Below, in pieces: positions 33,351 to 63,412 of a stretch of DNA of 64,000 nt. How positions within the stretch are numbered: position 1 is the stretch's first letter; each line of letters begins with the position of its first letter. A program made the translations under genes and the position numbers. The notes under the pieces are model-generated. The model made no database searches. It worked only from the letters and a program-made list of their open reading frames with translations, and had not been told where the DNA came from. The stretch lies in IMG/VR virus record IMGVR_UViG_3300026521_000527, positions 64,001-128,000 of that record. One strand, written 5' to 3'. The stretch is from a virus.

Positions 33351-33355
33351 AATTA

Positions 33356-33383
33356 TTTATATACTTAATTGATTTATTCTAAA
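33356..33383 (-). promoter_or_regulatory. Bipartite motif TTTAGAATAA-N8-AGTATATAAA, copy 1
   Basis: Both 10-bp boxes identical at 45421 and 53757. Confidence 0.55.
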
Positions 33384-40381: not shown

Positions 40382-40613
40382 CCAAAGTCTCCGAATTTGG
40401 TAATGACTTTTTCAGAATATACTGATAGAATTCATCAATTTCTGATTGAAGAAAATTAACCCTCGCTCTTTTTATAATAGTAGTTTTATTCCAATGAAGT
40501 TTAATTATATTCTCTGGATAAAGCTTAGATATTTTAGTGGGTATTTTAGATTGATCAACATATTCAATATCTACTTGATAAATTGAATCATTTATAAATT
40601 TCGAGTAGATCAT
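40374..40613 (-). CDS. Small hypothetical protein
   Basis: Start moved to MIYSKF to limit the overlap with rpoC-C. Confidence 0.5.
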   Translation of the reverse strand: MIYSKFINDSIYQVDIEYVDQSKIPTKISKLYPENIIKLHWNKTTIIKRARVNFLQSEIDEFYQYILKKSLPNSETLDD

Positions 40614-42561
40614 GATACATGTGCTCCACTGATACATCAGTTGATTTTGTATAAATTTTACTAATAGCTCTATTACTAAAATTATAAAAAATACTTAATT
40701 TTGGATCTAGCATTTCTATAATATTTTTTAAAGCGATTTGTCTAGTCGGTTCCTTATCACTATATCTATAAAGAACATCATCTTCATCATAATATAAAAG
40801 ACTTATAATAAGTTCTAGATAAACACTTAAAATATCATTTTGCTCTATAACAACTGATAATTTATCATATAAAACAGAAGGGTCTATTAAAGCAGCTCCA
40901 TCTCTATTTTTATCAATTAAAGATGTAATTGAGTTTAATGTTTTAACTGAATCATCATTAAAAGGTTGATTAATTACATTAAATATTAGAGTTATTTTGG
41001 ACTCTTCTTTAGAAATATCTATTTCAATATCATCATCTGTATAAATATTTTTTAAATAATTTAATATATATTCTAATTGATCTTCAAGAGTTCCAATTGA
41101 CTCATTTTCTTTTTCCAAAATAATTTCTTTCTCTGAAAATTTAGCTTCTCTTAAAATACTTAGAAGTTTTTTATCCTCAGTTGCAATAAAAGCTCCACCA
41201 AAATGGTGAGTCCTAAGAACGGATTGTATAATACCCTCAGATAATCCTGATCCAATAATTGCCCCTAAGTTTACACTATCCGGTATCTTTGAACCAAAAC
41301 ATTTTTTACAGATTTTATATCCACTATGTTTACATGTAATTGGACTCCTTATTAAGATATCTAGACCAATCAGAGATTCATCATTAATATCTATTTTTTC
41401 TTCCTGTCCAGTAGAGTCATTAAACCACCATCTATGATTTAAAAGCTCAAGGATTGTTTTATTCTTAATATTTATTTTAAAATACTTATCAGTTCCGCAA
41501 TCTTCAAGATCTTTATCCAGTTTTAAAATACCCGTGGTGAAGAAGAATTTTCTTTGTAGTTCGCCTCCTTTTGGAATTGCTTCCTGTCTTTGAGCCAGCG
41601 CCAATCTAGCGCTATCTCCTGTCATAAAATACTCTTCTTCCGTTAAACCATCAAGTAAAGAATTTTCAATATTTGCTTTAAACGCTTTTCCATAGATATC
41701 CGTAGGAATACCAGTATTCGATGCAGCCTTCAGTAATTGAACCGATTTTAATCTTGCCCCACTATTGAATACAAGATTCAATATATTATTGGGATCTTCT
41801 TCCACTGTATTTTTAACCTTTTCAAAAAGTATTAAATTTTGATGAAACGCTAAAAATGGTTCTTCTTTAAATAAACTACTTCGTATATCATCTATTTCTT
41901 TATTACCAACTGCAAAATCTTTCAAATCGAAAGAAGGATTGCAGTGTGTTATAACTGTACTGCATTCTAAAAGAAATTTATCAAACTCATGTATATTCAA
42001 CCAGAAGTCAAACTCAATGCCTCTTGAATTTAAATCTTGAACTATAGCCCAAAATCTCTCAGTTAACTTTAAAAGATTTTTTTTATTTAGAACGCCATCT
42101 TTTTCAATTTCGTAGAATGGCTCACCGAGCAATTCCACAGAATTTTCCAATTCACCGAATAAAGAAATATGGATTAACCATTCAATATAAGAAAGAGTTC
42201 TATTGAACTCTTTGATGTGAAATTGTCTACCAGGTTCTGATTCAACCAAATTAATATCAGCAACTAGTTCATCTAATGTATTTAATTCAACTATTTCTCT
42301 ATCTGGGAATTGAGCTAGATTTTCTTTTGCTCGCAAAGTTAACATAAAAGCACTATAAATTGATTCATGTTCATAGTCAATTAATAATTTATCCATGTGC
42401 TCAAATTCAATAAGATTTTTCACAAAGGCGTACTTAAAATCAGCTCGTGCTTGTTTTGAATGCATAGCGGCTGCAATAACATTATCACCATCATGATCAC
42501 TATTATCAAATTGTGACATTAAATTTGATTTCTCAATTACTTGATTGCTTCCTATAATCAT
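40588..42561 (-). CDS. rpoC: Phage multi-subunit RNA polymerase, beta-prime C-terminal piece (catalytic loop, bridge helix, trigger loop)
   Basis: FDNSDHDGDNV (NADFDGD variant), GGELQRKF, EDCGT, RSPITC...CKKCFG, SEG..QSVLRTHH.GG. Confidence 0.9.
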   Translation of the reverse strand: MIIGSNQVIEKSNLMSQFDNSDHDGDNVIAAAMHSKQARADFKYAFVKNLIEFEHMDKLLIDYEHESIYSAFMLTLRAKENLAQFPDREIVELNTLDELVADINLVESEPGRQFHIKEFNRTLSYIEWLIHISLFGELENSVELLGEPFYEIEKDGVLNKKNLLKLTERFWAIVQDLNSRGIEFDFWLNIHEFDKFLLECSTVITHCNPSFDLKDFAVGNKEIDDIRSSLFKEEPFLAFHQNLILFEKVKNTVEEDPNNILNLVFNSGARLKSVQLLKAASNTGIPTDIYGKAFKANIENSLLDGLTEEEYFMTGDSARLALAQRQEAIPKGGELQRKFFFTTGILKLDKDLEDCGTDKYFKINIKNKTILELLNHRWWFNDSTGQEEKIDINDESLIGLDILIRSPITCKHSGYKICKKCFGSKIPDSVNLGAIIGSGLSEGIIQSVLRTHHFGGAFIATEDKKLLSILREAKFSEKEIILEKENESIGTLEDQLEYILNYLKNIYTDDDIEIDISKEESKITLIFNVINQPFNDDSVKTLNSITSLIDKNRDGAALIDPSVLYDKLSVVIEQNDILSVYLELIISLLYYDEDDVLYRYSDKEPTRQIALKNIIEMLDPKLSIFYNFSNRAISKIYTKSTDVSVEHMYHDLLEIYK

Positions 42562-43455: not shown

Positions 43456-44787
43456 CTATTCCTCCAAATCATTTAAAAAATCATCAATTATTTCTTCATC
43501 ATTTACTTCTGGATTCAGTTCTATATTGCCATCATCCTCCTCATAATTTAATTTATCGTCAATTAATTTTAAAATATCATTATCATCAAAAACATTGGCT
43601 AAAACATATCCTCCTATATTATATCGCCATAATGTTGGTTGCCTCTCAACTAAGAGTTTAAATTCACTGATGTGTTTTTCTAAAAACTCTTGGAAATCTT
43701 CATCACGAATATTTATTTGGAAATCTTTATCGAATGATTTATAAATATATTGAATAAAATCAACTATTGAGATATTATTATCATTTATCGGATTATCTTG
43801 ATATTTAGTATATAAATAATGCAATAATTCCGGAAGAAATAATTTTTTTACTGACGAAACATGAAGCCCGATTTGATATGGCCTGAGAGCTGGATTAGGC
43901 ACTAAAACCGATCTTTGTGAAAACTCTACTGTTTTTCCAGTCAAGGCTTCTCGAATATAACTCTCTTTTTTTTGAAAATTAAATTCAAGTATTACTTCAT
44001 AAATTTCATCAACAGTCTGTTGGTATTTATAAACGGTATACCCGAAAAAATCTGGGTTTGCTTTAAATAATTGATCGGACATATTTATATTTTTAGCCTT
44101 ATTTTTAAGAATTTGGCTATAACTTTTGGTAATTGGATGGGGTAAAATTTTGGTAGGAGAGATTTTTATAATTTGACGACTACTTGGTGGAACCACCAAA
44201 ACATAATCTAAAAATATATAATCCAAGAATTTTGGATTTACAACTAAAGTTTCAAATGAAGCCTGATAGCTTGGATGGGTTCTTAGGAACTCAAAGAGTG
44301 ATTTTAAACTAACTATATCATAAACTGGTTGCTCAATTCTTCTTTCATTTGCTTTCATTCTAGATTCTTTTACCAATCTATGTTTTTCAAGACTAAAGAA
44401 ATAAGGAGCCTCTTTATTATTCTGGTAATCTTTTTTATTTAGTAGACTTTTTATAGCGACTTGTCCAAAAAACTGTTGCAAAACATTTTTGAAATTTGGG
44501 TTAACTACATAAATTCCATCTGGAAATTCTATTTTTGCAAATGTTGTTGTCCTATTATCTGTGGTACCGCAAAGAACATGACACTCTTCACAATACAATC
44601 CAGCGTTTTTCTTTCCAAATAGTTTATTGCATTGGCACCTAAATTTCTTAATTGGGCCAAATATTTGCTCAGAATATAAACCATCCGGATGAAAAACCTC
44701 TTGTTTCACACTGGTATATATTTTTGGACTAGTTATGTCAACTAACTGATCTGAATTTTCATAAATTTTAAAATTTAAATCTAACAT
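43456..44787 (-). CDS. rpoC: Phage multi-subunit RNA polymerase, beta-prime N-terminal piece
   Basis: DGLYSEQIFGP, CQC...CEEC Zn site, LTGKTVEFSQRSVL.P, ERQPTL; acidic tail. Confidence 0.92.
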   Translation of the reverse strand: MLDLNFKIYENSDQLVDITSPKIYTSVKQEVFHPDGLYSEQIFGPIKKFRCQCNKLFGKKNAGLYCEECHVLCGTTDNRTTTFAKIEFPDGIYVVNPNFKNVLQQFFGQVAIKSLLNKKDYQNNKEAPYFFSLEKHRLVKESRMKANERRIEQPVYDIVSLKSLFEFLRTHPSYQASFETLVVNPKFLDYIFLDYVLVVPPSSRQIIKISPTKILPHPITKSYSQILKNKAKNINMSDQLFKANPDFFGYTVYKYQQTVDEIYEVILEFNFQKKESYIREALTGKTVEFSQRSVLVPNPALRPYQIGLHVSSVKKLFLPELLHYLYTKYQDNPINDNNISIVDFIQYIYKSFDKDFQINIRDEDFQEFLEKHISEFKLLVERQPTLWRYNIGGYVLANVFDDNDILKLIDDKLNYEEDDGNIELNPEVNDEEIIDDFLNDLEE

Positions 44788-45173
44788 TAGATTCCTTTCT
44801 CAATAGCATATCTAAGGCAAACATTTATATGCTTACAGCTTCTAACAGTGCATGTTGGGTTAGTCTCCTTCGGAGGTTCTAATACAAAATCAGGTTGTGT
44901 CAAAAGGGCACCGTGTTGATCGAAGCAATATGCTAATCTGTACCTAAAGTCTAAACAACTACAATAAACCTTAATTTTACTACTTGGTGTAATTTTTGGC
45001 GTATTTGATTCGATCTTTACGACATACATGCTTGGTTGTATATCTGTAGTCGATTTTTTACTAATTAAACTGAATTGTTTTATATAAGGGCGATTTATAA
45101 CTTTTATAACTTTTATAGTATTATCTTGTGATCTAAGTATACTACTTACTGTAATTGATGATTGGGTTGCCAT
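44787..45173 (-). CDS. SWIM zinc-finger protein
   Basis: CSCLDF...CKH. Start moved to MATQ. Confidence 0.7.
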   Translation of the reverse strand: MATQSSITVSSILRSQDNTIKVIKVINRPYIKQFSLISKKSTTDIQPSMYVVKIESNTPKITPSSKIKVYCSCLDFRYRLAYCFDQHGALLTQPDFVLEPPKETNPTCTVRSCKHINVCLRYAIEKGI

Positions 45174-45214
45174 TTTTGTCCTTTGAAAAAAATAAAATAA
45201 AATAAAAAAATTGG

Positions 45215-45412
45215 ACAATAGGAACCCCGTCCCTCTCAGGCCAGTGAACTATCCAAGTACTACCGATTTCAGTTTATCCTGAACCATTTCCATATTTCTT
45301 ATACTTCTTTTGATTCAGGGACCTACTCACGATAGGACCCGATACCACACCACCATCCAGATGACGAGGATCCGTCCACGATTAGTACCCTCCGATATCT
45401 AACCGCTTCTAA
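45215..45412 (-). ncRNA. Candidate structured non-coding RNA of unknown class
   Basis: GC-rich island without an ORF; nested long-range helices, a GNRA-capped hairpin and many G-U pairs on the minus strand; promoter-like motif upstream and U-run downstream. Confidence 0.55.
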
Positions 45413-45420
45413 TAATAGTA

Positions 45421-45448
45421 TTTATATACTTCGAGAAGTTATTCTAAA
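45421..45448 (-). promoter_or_regulatory. Bipartite motif TTTAGAATAA-N8-AGTATATAAA, copy 2
   Basis: Directly upstream of the ncRNA candidate; the upstream box overlaps the clamp-loader stop codon. Confidence 0.55.
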
Positions 45449-46455
45449 CTATAAATTCCACCCCCTTTCGCTTCAAATATATTTTCAAGTATCTGAGCAA
45501 ACATTGTTAAAAAATGCAAAGTCTTAAATCTTTTTAACTCCAAATCTTGATAAAATTCTTGAATTGTTTTTTGATGTAATAGATTCAAATCCGAATCAAT
45601 CAATCCTTTAAATATATAATCAAAATTTAAATGCAGATCTGATTTAAAAACTTTTAAAATGTACTCATAATAAGTGAAAAAATGCTGATCATTTTTTGCA
45701 TCCTTAATAATATCAAGTTCTAATCCGACACCCAATGTCTCAAAATATTTTATCAGGTACACAGCATAATTTATTACGTTATCCTCAGTATCAGATACAC
45801 CAATAAAACTGTTAATTATACTTGGATCAAATATTCCAGATACTGATGCAAGTTCCAAATTATTTATAATATCTCGAAGACCTTTAGTTTTAAAAGAACT
45901 TACGAATTTTTTAAGATCTTCTAGATGGTATTTTATTTTTTCAGAATCTAGAATAAATTTTACTCTTTCGAATATCTTATTTTCATCAAGATCTGTAAAA
46001 TGTATTTTGGTATTAAATCTAGTCAGGAGGGCCGAATCCATTTTTTCAGGATTATTCGTCGTTGCTAAAAAAGCAGTCGTCGCTTGATATTTTTCTAATA
46101 ACCCATCTTTCAAGACAACTTGAGCCTGAGCACTTAGTCTATCAATTTCTTCGATTTTAACTATTTTCTGTTTACTACTTGCTGCACGCTGCTGCAACCA
46201 TCTAGCTAATTCATCAACGGAATCAATTTTTCGATCCAAGATAAAGATATCTACTCTATTTTTTACAATGCGATTAATTAGAACTTCATTAATGGTTGTC
46301 TTTCCAAGTCCAGCAGCACCATAACTTAAAATATTACCATTAATAAATTCATTATTATAAAAAGTTCTAATAACTTTTTCTATATTTTCATTTGGAAAAA
46401 TAACTTCATCAATTGATCTGGGGCGATATTTTTCAAACCACGCTTTAAACATCAT
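45439..46455 (-). CDS. Clamp loader AAA+ subunit (T4 gp44/RFC-small-like)
   Basis: WFEKYRP..IDEV, GAAGLGKTT, IEEIDRLS..AQ, ALLTRF. Confidence 0.88.
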   Translation of the reverse strand: MMFKAWFEKYRPRSIDEVIFPNENIEKVIRTFYNNEFINGNILSYGAAGLGKTTINEVLINRIVKNRVDIFILDRKIDSVDELARWLQQRAASSKQKIVKIEEIDRLSAQAQVVLKDGLLEKYQATTAFLATTNNPEKMDSALLTRFNTKIHFTDLDENKIFERVKFILDSEKIKYHLEDLKKFVSSFKTKGLRDIINNLELASVSGIFDPSIINSFIGVSDTEDNVINYAVYLIKYFETLGVGLELDIIKDAKNDQHFFTYYEYILKVFKSDLHLNFDYIFKGLIDSDLNLLHQKTIQEFYQDLELKRFKTLHFLTMFAQILENIFEAKGGGIYSLE

Positions 46456-53749: not shown

Positions 53750-53756
53750 AATATTA

Positions 53757-53785
53757 TTTATATACTATCCGAAAGTTATTCTAAA
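53757..53785 (-). promoter_or_regulatory. Bipartite motif TTTAGAATAA-N9-AGTATATAAA, copy 3
   Basis: Intergenic; boxes identical to copies 1 and 2. Confidence 0.55.
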
Positions 53786-61600: not shown

Positions 61601-63412
61601 TTCCCTATTTTTATATAATTTATAAAACTTGAATTTTTTAGGACCATCTTCAAAAGGATTCTTTTCAACAGCATCCTTATAATTTAATTCATATATAAGT
61701 CCATCAGAGACCATCTCAACATCAAAAAATATATCATTAGGTACTGATTTTGGAATATTATATTTTTCTTTAAAGAAGTCAATTTCATCTTTCGTATAAT
61801 TATTAGATGATTTAATTTTTTTCAAACCCTCGAGTTTCTTTTTGAAATTTATAAGAATATCACCTTGATTTTTTTGCTCTGTAATCCCATGACTTTTCAA
61901 TGTTATAGCTGATGTTGAATAGTGAGTATACACACGAACTATATTCGGTTTAACCTTAATAACTGGTTTTGGGAAAAATTGATTTGTCATAATATAATTT
62001 CCAGAATTCAGTTTTAAATATTTACCTTGAGCTGGATAAGGAATATGGAACTTTACAGTATAAGGTTTAGTGTTGCCGAACTCTTTATGTTGAATTTTTA
62101 TTTTGAATGTTTTAAAACGATCTTTATAATTATCAGTGATTTCAGAACTTATTCCAAGAATTTTTATTTTTAAATCAGGATCGGATTCTAATGATTTAAT
62201 TAAATCATACATTGCTTCATCTAGGTTTTGGTCAAACTCTGAACTTTGTCTACCATACGCGTGAAAATCATTAAATCCTATTATTTTTAATGGATCAAAA
62301 TATGTATTTGTGGCTGATGCCACTGATTTTGGATTAACTGTAATAACACCATTGTACTTTTTATTTAATTCTTTTATTTCACTTGAAATTTCTTCTATTG
62401 ATTTTGAGTTCTTTTGAACTGTTTTATCAATCTTTTCTTTCACTTTATTATCTTTAGAATCTGATTGCTCTTTAGTAATAATTGAACTATGTTTATTATA
62501 TACATATTTCAATTTTTCCTCAATAGTTTTACCTTTAACAACTTTTGAAGTATTTAAAATATGCTTAATTGCTTCAATGGGATGTTCATTTAACTCATCT
62601 GATTGAACTTTGCTTGACGTTTCCGCACGAAGAGACTTTTTGCGCAACGAGTTTAAATTATGTAAAATATCAATATCATTTTTTATATTTAATATTTCTT
62701 CATCTGGATTAACTTCTTCTTGTGTTATATTTTGATTATGAACCTCTTTAAAAAATCTAGTAATAATATTCATATTTATTTTTAAATACGGTCCATCTTT
62801 ATCTTCTTCGATTGTAGTGATTGGCCAATATCTTCCTGAACCTATGAACACAACACCGTCTATATTTTTTAAGCGAATTTTATTTTGTATCATTCGGCTA
62901 TAATATAAAAAAGTTTCTGCAAAAGTGTCAGTTTGAACATCATTATTATCAATTATCAAATACACTTCTTTATCGGGTGATGTTGTTTTACTATCTTTTG
63001 CGAAAGAATCAACTAGTGTTAAAAATGACTCCATTGTTTGTCTTTTTGATCTGGTTTTAATCAAATTTGAAAATAATTCTGAAAGTGGAGTCAAGTCAAC
63101 AATAACACTTTGCTGTTCTTTCTGGGCACGCATAAATTTTTTCTGAATTCTTATCTGTGGTATGAATTTTTTTGCGTCTTTGAAGTAAACATTAGTGAAT
63201 ACTTTTTTCCCCAAGAAATTAAAAGCAGGGGGTATTAGAATATAATCCCAGAAATTTTTTTTCCTATATTTCTGAATAAATTGAATACCTTTATCATCGA
63301 TAGAGTACTCTGGGAAATATATTAAATTCGCCCCGATATTTTTATCGTTTCTAAACATAATGTTTGATGTAGGTATTTTATTTTTTATAACAGTAGATAT
63401 CTTTAACATCAT
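58613..63412 (-). CDS. rpoB: Second, unsplit RNA polymerase beta subunit with ~400-aa N-terminal extension (candidate virion RNAP)
   Basis: YLKLNSGNY...Q, SYFG......T.E.G.IG, DDTTRRVMGNQQFSQ, GKNLVVALM.Y.G.NYEDG, GSKF...GGKG, PVSIISR.N, YYLEH, TGQ...G...G...G.YD. Confidence 0.92.
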   Translation of the reverse strand: MMLKISTVIKNKIPTSNIMFRNDKNIGANLIYFPEYSIDDKGIQFIQKYRKKNFWDYILIPPAFNFLGKKVFTNVYFKDAKKFIPQIRIQKKFMRAQKEQQSVIVDLTPLSELFSNLIKTRSKRQTMESFLTLVDSFAKDSKTTSPDKEVYLIIDNNDVQTDTFAETFLYYSRMIQNKIRLKNIDGVVFIGSGRYWPITTIEEDKDGPYLKINMNIITRFFKEVHNQNITQEEVNPDEEILNIKNDIDILHNLNSLRKKSLRAETSSKVQSDELNEHPIEAIKHILNTSKVVKGKTIEEKLKYVYNKHSSIITKEQSDSKDNKVKEKIDKTVQKNSKSIEEISSEIKELNKKYNGVITVNPKSVASATNTYFDPLKIIGFNDFHAYGRQSSEFDQNLDEAMYDLIKSLESDPDLKIKILGISSEITDNYKDRFKTFKIKIQHKEFGNTKPYTVKFHIPYPAQGKYLKLNSGNYIMTNQFFPKPVIKVKPNIVRVYTHYSTSAITLKSHGITEQKNQGDILINFKKKLEGLKKIKSSNNYTKDEIDFFKEKYNIPKSVPNDIFFDVEMVSDGLIYELNYKDAVEKNPFEDGPKKFKFYKLYKNRELIEYAYISPTSEDVHYKTKEGDENHFPKEHITEFIMNLWNNFAKEHINSRIDLKSKSSKPYFGLRMQAKEIALIHFFIMNKGLLNTLDFLGIKYQYAKVRNKDAALNLKIDDTKIKYLAIFSTSLTEEYFINGLRIGASMVFPTTKKKLNDPDLYNPFFELKGSDGRYVKKTREATESFIDNTTSKILKTYNIPTDIYDLFGKYVPKLLLNSDVEIIEDLSTQRIRMSEAISHAGYKMLQKALAKLKRVKNSGSGYDAMLELHPYFITQEMMSSGMFQFTQSTNPLEELLLSSKITKTGIGNMKKEQVTLPKRDLNRSYFGTVAATTTNEYGGIGLNQTLTNKATIKDRFGSIQIKSFTNDRNPFENLSATESLLPFYEYDDTTRRVMGNQQFSQFVQLDNPDEPLVQTGFESIVPHLVSDRFAIKAKMDGRVKSIDKEYINIIGKDGELIRYNIKEKRSRTKRGIYMPLKYNVMVKEGQKVFKGDVLAATNSLKTGKMSPGKNLVVALMSYRGMNYEDGWVVSSKLTDKFTNKIHEKITILIPTGAKIKEDFLTVGRNTKPGDILCSYYKDSNFNLEDYNDDSDSGETVLTGVEFSGNNVIYRSMGGVIKDIIIRVNDKNIDKKVLEKWNSITKNIREKLKECELYKHNHKRYADCTSNVENSQMLVVGGHKVNGHEFEGAVIEVYIEGRNEIRSGSKFTLGGTGGKGTIQYMIPKGKDPKSLDTKLDIEFIPTPVSIISRKNPSIILNLYSGKVVYYLNKKVKELIGTKQIDKARSLILSVFGAMDASPDQFLINEVMGFFDSKSTPEIIKYVNQSDPLNRPAFPLLVPPHKNKMTIKNIEEAAKILGIPLDEKVYIPEEDIYTDRPVPVGILQIYYLEHFPKIMSSTRGSLKVKRQFTTGQGRSGTKVGNGAIKIGIYDLFSLSTRKPGHLIKELHGMRSDNQESSRKLMNSILKTGQMPVTSDIKVDSQQSKTKQLIEAYFIGAIIEPRLS

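Follow-up and report, generated by a model that had tools for sequence, protein, structure and literature searches.

A conserved rod-shaped RNA at the head of the SWIM/RNA polymerase operon of uncultured jumbo phages

Introduction

Short RNAs derived from 5′ untranslated regions (5′ UTRs) of jumbo phages are the closest described counterparts of the element reported here. For the nucleus-forming Pseudomonas jumbo phages phiKZ and 201phi2-1, two reports describe dozens of terminators located inside 5′ UTRs by cap-selective long-read RNA sequencing, mostly with a dominant short RNA of <250 nt and a minor read-through mRNA, a pattern confirmed by northern blots; some of these units precede tRNA genes (PMC10914365, PMC11512511). 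In the T4-type phages RB49 and phi1, promoter-early stem-loop (PeSL) cassettes place a repeated, strong sigma-70-like promoter and a stem-loop before early genes and are likely places of gene insertion; their stem-loops are short, G/C-tract hairpins that lie mostly within or before the promoter (PMC2839356).

Two further points of comparison come from bacteria. The rplL-rpoB leader of Escherichia coli contains an attenuator and an RNase III site, and the S10 leader is controlled by L4 and thus read by a protein encoded downstream. 6S RNA is defined by a large central bubble (~15 nt per strand) that mimics an open promoter. Here we describe a folded RNA of ~200 bases that precedes the RNA polymerase genes of a lineage of uncultured jumbo phages, and we examine how it relates to these systems.

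Results

Genomic context

The window, which is the whole stretch of 64,000 nucleotides analysed here, belongs to a 137-kb genome fragment (G000) from an uncultured jumbo phage, ~49% complete according to CheckV. A DNA run that contains the window is labelled as a hydrothermal-vent metagenome and may be its source. All large open reading frames (ORFs) of the window are on the minus strand, and the RNA sits in a 265-nt gap with a clamp-loader gene upstream and a gene for a SWIM-type zinc-finger protein downstream. The features of the locus, in the direction of transcription, are the following:

45439-46455, minus strand: clamp-loader gene, upstream neighbour
45419-45446, minus strand: putative promoter motif TAGAATAACT-N6-AGTATATAAATA, 28 nt, sigma-70-like TTTAGA-N16-TATAAA
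45213-45411, minus strand: structured RNA made of 5′ UAGAA, P1, rod and terminator-like end (covariance model R1; fold z)
45378-45406, minus strand: P1, a 12-bp hairpin with one bulged A and a GGAG loop (45390-45393)
45329-45373, minus strand: rod 5′ strand, with closing helix GGAUCCUCGUC, invariant mismatched U 45370 and internal-loop half GGAU (45355-45358)
45268-45328, minus strand: apical domain, with AGUA (45324-45327) facing GAAA (45267-45270), a short helix and an 8-bp hairpin
45221-45267, minus strand: rod 3′ strand, with internal-loop half UGAG (45235-45238), bulged G in UGGCC and mismatched U 45224
45186-45232, minus strand: terminator-like end, formed by a GGAC/GUCC rod extension or a local hairpin GGACGG/UUGUCC (45213-45232), then T-run 45186-45210
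~45179-45184, minus strand: ribosome-binding site of the SWIM gene
44787-45173, minus strand: SWIM-type zinc-finger protein (CxC...CxH), 128 aa, first gene of the operon (motif read from the protein alignment)
43456-44787, minus strand: N-terminal piece of RNA polymerase beta′ (Pfam RNA_pol_Rpb1_2, E 1.2e-8; PHROG RNA polymerase subunit families)
40588-42561, minus strand: later RNA polymerase beta′ pieces, downstream

Profile searches with the SWIM protein returned no match in Pfam, PHROG or PDB, and 65 homologues were found in metagenomic protein sets. In the contigs fetched with the following genes, the SWIM gene precedes the beta′ N-terminal piece either directly or after one to three inserted ORFs; given this placement, the SWIM protein could be an unrecognised polymerase accessory factor. 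The complete relative (contig L002, genome G001) carries two paralogous genes with DUF723 and treble-clef zinc-finger repeats between its SWIM and beta′ genes (L002:2030-4008), possibly of homing-endonuclease-like nature. A blastn search with the 2-kb region against 50,697 phage records found no match. In the same records, tblastn detected distant matches only (SWIM ≤47% and beta′ ≤23% identity), which indicates that the phage has no cultured relative; its beta′ is ~23% identical to that of the nearest cultured phage.

A conserved folded RNA

The initial annotation had described a GC-rich, structured element of ~200 nt read on the minus strand, with a promoter-like motif just upstream and a U-run downstream, and our analysis recovered all of these features. 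A GC island spans positions 45213-45411 (GC 0.43-0.44, against 0.22-0.30 in the flanks), and its minus strand folds with −64.9 kcal/mol (z −3.7), a value matched by none of 200 shuffles. The plus strand folds at chance level (z +0.87), so that the minus-strand reading stands. The promoter-like motif lies at 45419-45446, and the T-run at 45186-45210 follows a terminator-like hairpin at 45213-45232.

We fetched homologue contigs to cover the spread of the 65 SWIM relatives. The RNA has homologues, in an equivalent position, in no fewer than 15 related phage contigs: a GC-rich element of this kind precedes the SWIM operon in 15 distinct contigs that encode SWIM proteins with 48-87% identity to the one of the window. 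From the conserved UAGAA to the end of the last helix, the homologues measure 176-194 nt. A covariance model of the family (R1) scores 139 bits on the window (E 7e-29) and finds exactly one copy in the genome of the window (G000) and one in a complete 281-kb relative (G001); it revealed no second copy in either genome. In two more distant contigs, L036 and L042, the best matches of the model are weak (E 0.009 and 0.027, with speed filters off) and fall exactly in the gap before the SWIM gene; these candidates form a shorter rod that retains GGAU, AGUA, UGAG and the U-run, and are probable but unproven members of the family. An exact 18-mer scan of IMG/VR gave 14 matches, 13 of which are unrelated coding sequence.

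The fold was obtained with RNAalifold from a plain MAFFT alignment, which is based on sequence only and was not fitted to any structure. The consensus consists of the 5′ hairpin P1 and one long rod, in which columns 42-87 pair with columns 154-202. Standard pairs occupy 92% of the cells, against 64% with shuffled partners and 39-47% when the partners are slid by one to three columns, and both sides of the pair have changed in 43 of the 47 pairs. The covariation score reaches 0.80, compared to 0.27 for shuffled and ~0.11 for slid partners. When the sequences are folded individually, 14 out of 16 reach the P1-plus-rod shape; the other two (L014 and L034) keep P1 and fold otherwise in the remainder. 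The GC-rich stretch is thus a real, conserved folded RNA of ~200 bases.

P1 is a hairpin of 12-13 bp across the homologues, with a GGAG or GGAA loop in every one of them. All ten of its modelled pairs show compensatory changes, and 89-91% of the cells are paired. In the ~150-nt rod, which has a variable tip, 33 of the 37 pairs of helices 3 and 4 have changed on both sides, and 91-95% of the cells are paired. Particular details are conserved within these helices, among them the bulged G in UGGCC. The closing helix always contains a U.U mismatch after its third pair, while the three closing pairs themselves read GCG/CGC, GGA/UCC or GUA/UAC in different phages. The 4×4 internal loop opposes GGAW to UGAG, or GAAW to UGCU in a variant form, which implies that the two sides of the loop change together; this loop and one of 6×4 nt are the largest internal loops of the consensus. 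A K-turn reading of the GGAW/UGAG loop was dropped, as the loop is devoid of a 3-nt bulge and of a G-A step beside the helix.

Toward the apex, AGUA is invariant in 15 of 15 aligned sequences. The strand facing it reads GAA in ten distinct homologues, GAG in three and UAG or UAA in two. AGUA/GAA is the sequence signature of the sarcin-ricin/loop E (bulged-G) module, a signature being no proof of the module. The apical layout repeats in the separate folds of each homologue, and the tip past AGUA varies in length and sequence, often ending in a GAAA-type loop.

The pairing scheme previously drawn for the element fared less well than its outline. The proposed helices GGTTAG/CTGGCC, TATC/GATA and GGGTACTA-TCG/CGG-TAGTACTT and a GTGA-capped stem are all complementary in this one sequence; in the 15 homologues, the three long-range helices and the GTGA stem pair in 41-52% of cells, a background frequency (31-45% when the partners are slid). 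GGTTAG is really one arm of the local hairpin P1, and CTGGCC is part of the 3′ strand of the long rod. The sole helix of that drawing to fit the conserved fold is the apical 8-bp stem CCTGAATC/GGTTCAGG (45312-45319 with 45278-45285), which encloses a 26-nt A-rich loop and is retained in the close relative L010 through changes on both arms.

Relationship to known RNA families

Rfam 15 at gathering thresholds yielded no family match in the 64-kb window; the models tested took in 6S RNA, T-box and other riboswitches, group I and II introns, tmRNA, RNase P, phage pRNA and self-cleaving ribozymes. When the region 45100-45550 was searched at E values up to 10, three chance-level matches appeared (12-18 bits against thresholds of 50-76), none of which covers the fold. 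Rfam likewise returned nothing over the RNA at five homologous loci, and ARAGORN found no tRNA or tmRNA. These searches agree with the initial annotation, which had recognised no tRNA, tmRNA, intron or riboswitch, and, with the covariation among homologues, they bear out its proposal of a new phage RNA: it is conserved, structured and absent from Rfam. No description of it was found in the papers searched. The family is therefore new, with no Rfam model and no cultured phage carrier. The kind of element, a structured promoter-proximal leader or 5′ UTR-derived RNA of a jumbo phage, is already known.

Three other readings of the stretch were considered and set aside. A protein-coding gene was rejected since the homologues share no conserved open reading frame: each of the three sense-strand frames contains one to nine stop codons in every homologue, and no frame is common to them. 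The segment GGUGAUACC resembles a T-box sequence and is part of the rod 3′ strand, where it covaries with its partner. A replication origin, suggested by the promoter and the AT-rich run, was discarded, given that the long T-run lacks conservation and that the skew does not change.

A promoter motif and a fixed place at the head of the operon

The 28-nt motif upstream of the RNA is taken to be a promoter by its sigma-70-like sequence, with a predicted transcription start a few bases past it, near 45411-45417. It stands directly before the RNA in every complete homologue and is the sole part of the upstream gap conserved between phages. G000 has six copies and G001 has 15, all of them intergenic and on the coding strand; they are near-identical, and behind each one comes, in a PeSL-like manner, a hairpin with a U-run immediately ahead of a ribosome-binding site. 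Apart from the copy before the rod RNA, sites lie at positions 33354-33381 and 53755-53783 of the window and at 61809, 33043 and 24695 (minus strand) of G000. Two of the copies in G001 directly precede tRNA genes. Other leaders behind the motif are repeated in G001 (one of ~100 nt in five copies, another in two), which indicates that units made of a promoter and a structured leader are a recurrent feature of these phages. Among such leaders, the rod RNA is the one that is single-copy and conserved across the lineage, and in G000 and G001 only its promoter part recurs.

The gene upstream of the RNA differs among phages and encodes a clamp loader, PTH2 or a small ORF product. Extra genes are inserted between the RNA and the SWIM gene in three phages, namely Tad6-family genes in L039 and L064 and a 78-aa ORF in L044. 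The variable upstream gene and the insertions downstream indicate that the RNA travels with the promoter at the 5′ end of the operon. The SWIM start codon is not coupled to the RNA, and this speaks against a control in which that ribosome-binding site is masked. We found no second promoter motif between the RNA and the first start codon, and the gap from the RNA to the start codon is only ~40 nt in L039 and L038. Transcription of the operon must accordingly pass through the RNA. What emerges directly from the comparison of these phages is thus the RNA family, its fold, its promoter motif and its constant location at the operon head.

The neighbourhood has other features of its own. The Tad6-family genes, predicted type I Thoeris inhibitors, occupy L039:1389-1982 and L064:877-1491 in two separate phages (Pfam E 3e-19 and 3e-17), and an Apyc1-type anti-Pycsar gene lies just upstream in L042; anti-defence genes seem prone to insert at this operon head. 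In L040 (1-1253), the gene prediction for the clamp loader that precedes the RNA gives a product of 685 aa in which LAGLIDADG matches faintly, which suggests the insertion of an intein or endonuclease.

The 3′ end

A stem followed within a few bases of its 3′ arm by a U-run, the sequence pattern of an intrinsic terminator or attenuator, is present at the end of the RNA, and by this pattern the end qualifies as a candidate terminator. A terminator scan gave one match against 0.3 expected. In the minimum free energy fold of the 199-nt RNA, the rod is lengthened by the 4-bp GGAC/GUCC helix; in the window, this extension or the alternative hairpin ends at 45213, two bases before T7. In 15 of 15 homologues, the closing helix is followed by A or AA and a U-rich run or, as in the window, by a short extension and then a U-run. 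An alternative pairing is possible in six homologues (the window, L010, L002, L034, L043 and L064): there, the closing-helix 3′ strand and an arm located downstream can make a hairpin of their own before the U-run, so that this strand always belongs to a terminator-type stem. The distance from promoter motif to terminator-like end is ~200-230 nt, and both are upstream of the first start codon.

Coverage in an RNA library

A 253-nt metatranscriptome contig from an independent study covers 45231-45482 and is identical to the window save for one extra G. The extra base lies at 45337/45338 in the rod 5′ strand (GGGG vs GGG) and is a strain variant inside a helix. The contig runs from inside the clamp-loader gene and, on the upstream side, reaches 71 nt past the predicted start, so that it takes in the promoter motif; for this reason, some of the signal is read-in transcription or library DNA, and the contig shows no start or end. 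Its lower end at 45231 is an assembly break, because the contig of the DNA run breaks there too. In the same library, the rest of the 1.6-kb stretch is uncovered, apart from a 33-nt piece of another organism's gene; this comparison is based on assembled contigs only, from which a gap in cover does not show that the flanking genes are weakly expressed. The contig hints, weakly, at an accumulation of RNA from this region.

Discussion

Comparison with described systems

The rod RNA resembles the short 5′ UTR RNAs of phiKZ and 201phi2-1 in its predicted promoter, in a terminator-like stem and U-run within 250 nt and before the first gene, in the presence of some units before tRNA genes (as in the relative G001), and in the conservation of its sequence among related phages. 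All of these phages are jumbo phages encoding multisubunit RNA polymerases. They are only distantly related, however, and their RNAs have no sequence relation. Moreover, the phiKZ and 201phi2-1 RNAs, as presented there, are defined by their transcript ends, whereas the rod RNA is defined by a covariation-supported fold and its ends are predicted; the rod RNA is also longer, and its whole body forms the terminator stem. The PeSL cassettes share with the vent phages a repeated sigma-70-like promoter with a stem-loop, and their likely role as gene-insertion places has a parallel in the Tad6-family genes found right after the unit (PMC2839356). Unlike the PeSL stem-loops, the rod follows its promoter, occurs once per genome and folds over 190 nt with conserved loop sequences.

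As in the rplL-rpoB and S10 leaders of E. coli, a structured leader and what may be a partial terminator precede genes of the transcription or translation machinery (polymerase or ribosomal proteins). These leaders have no sequence or structural homology with the rod RNA and belong to different hosts, and autoregulation by the rod is hypothetical. 6S RNA (RF00013 and relatives) is alike in size (~180-200 nt), in its rod-like shape with paired ends and in its link to RNA polymerase. It differs in that its models do not match the rod RNA, whose internal loops are ≤6 nt and whose rod is preceded by a 5′ hairpin.

A probable stop-or-go leader

The RNA has, in our estimation, an even chance of being a promoter-proximal attenuator or leader of the SWIM/RNA polymerase beta′ operon that also releases a short stable RNA, and we consider that it probably acts as a stop-or-go leader. 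Of the functions proposed at the outset, a structured leader of the SWIM/rpoC operon is favoured because the RNA always follows the only recognisable promoter of the operon, because several relatives (L039 and L038) leave no room for a second promoter before the next start codon, and because inserted genes fall between the RNA and the SWIM gene. A 6S-like decoy and a ribozyme, which were also suggested, are not supported: the RNA shows no large central bubble and no match to a 6S model, and it is a plain rod that matches no ribozyme model.

In the mechanism that we propose, the conserved promoter would start the RNA, and the hairpin with the GGAG loop would form first. The ~150-nt rod would then zip up from its tip during synthesis, and its last helix would close as the U-run is transcribed, a geometry that is that of an intrinsic terminator. 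Polymerases stopping at the U-run would release a stable ~200-nt rod RNA, while those reading through would transcribe the SWIM and polymerase-subunit genes into mRNA. The U.U mismatch, the GGAW/UGAG loop and AGUA/GAA would be the likely docking sites of a factor setting the ratio of stopping to read-through. The transcript ends, the termination and any such factor are what we infer from this arrangement. The conserved loops suggest that a protein reads the RNA, the obvious candidates being the SWIM protein and the phage polymerase.

Two considerations weigh against an attenuator. A 150-nt rod is unusually long for a terminator stem, and the U-run could instead be an AU-rich translation enhancer, as other genes of this phage have one. 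Such enhancers are common before ribosome-binding sites in AT-rich genomes. An attenuator could also be extended to an autogenous circuit, in which the phage polymerase or the SWIM protein would bind the loops of the nascent rod and set termination and read-through, and the released rod would stay bound to the polymerase; we hold this extension to be possible and rather unlikely.

Alternative explanations

Among the alternatives, a role of the released ~200-nt rod as a functional trans-acting RNA is the one that survives best, and we view it as unlikely. The rod would bind a protein, for example RNA polymerase (of the phage or of its host), the ribosome or a defence sensor through which the host detects structured RNA, and the leader position of the rod would merely be its route to early expression. 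The tightly kept length (176-194 nt) and the conserved sequence of the internal loops fit such a role, as do AGUA, GGAW/UGAG, the U.U mismatch and the bulged G, which are typical of protein-binding RNAs, and the paired ends, which are found in other stable RNAs. Short 5′ UTR-derived RNAs are reported to be abundant in phiKZ (PMC10914365), and anti-defence genes (Tad6 family, Apyc1) adjoin the RNA in some relatives. However, the rod has no large central bubble of the 6S-defining type, the GGAG loops that resemble ribosome-binding sites are closed by a 12-13-bp stem, and the RNA is never found away from the head of the SWIM/RNA polymerase operon.

We think it improbable that the rod is an RNase III-type processing or stability element, whose cleavage would leave a defined transcript end and a protective hairpin. 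In phage T7, such hairpins follow promoters and lie between gene blocks, and E. coli has a processing site before rpoB. The rod, with 35-45 stacked base pairs and small internal loops, has the form of known RNase III sites; it lies between two gene blocks and directly after a promoter, like the T7 sites, and one RNA-library contig spans promoter and rod. But simple processing hairpins need no invariant AGUA, no conserved U.U mismatch and no fixed length, and this explanation does not account for a U-run flush with the base of the helix. The other promoter-proximal hairpins of the phage are, in addition, short and unrelated in sequence.

A still less probable explanation is that the rod serves mainly as a terminator or insulator of the upstream replication-gene operon, coupled to a promoter in a PeSL-like manner, with no regulation of the polymerase operon. 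The RNA-library contig does run from inside the clamp-loader gene through the rod, promoter-plus-hairpin units recur in both genomes, and PeSL stem-loops are effective terminators (PMC2839356). Against this, the RNA is constant in its association with the downstream operon and not with any one upstream gene; a short hairpin would suffice, as in the other five units of this genome; and an insulator has no need of a 190-nt fold whose loops are conserved among phages that share only 48-60% identity in their SWIM proteins. Finally, a small-molecule riboswitch, in which a ligand would stabilise the closing helix and block the alternative terminator hairpin, would have an ON-switch layout in the six homologues where the closing-helix 3′ strand pairs with a downstream arm into a separate terminator, but it is highly improbable given that this hairpin is absent from nine homologues, that the unbranched rod has no junction or pseudoknot pocket, that no riboswitch model matches and that the downstream genes are not metabolic.

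Significance

A multisubunit RNA polymerase of its own frees a jumbo phage from most of the host's control over transcription, and to our knowledge it is not known how such phages dose their polymerase genes. If the element were merely a leader with a terminator, its description would be a useful annotation and no surprise. As a probable leader with conserved loops that resemble protein-binding sites, the rod RNA may provide a concrete handle on attenuation or autoregulation of phage polymerase synthesis. It enlarges the still small set of phage-encoded structured RNAs, and its sequence context suggests that the layout of promoter, short RNA and gene known from Pseudomonas jumbo phages is also present in an uncultured vent lineage. 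Should an autogenous circuit prove true, the rod would be a phage-built counterpart of the put- and 6S-type RNAs that act directly on RNA polymerase.
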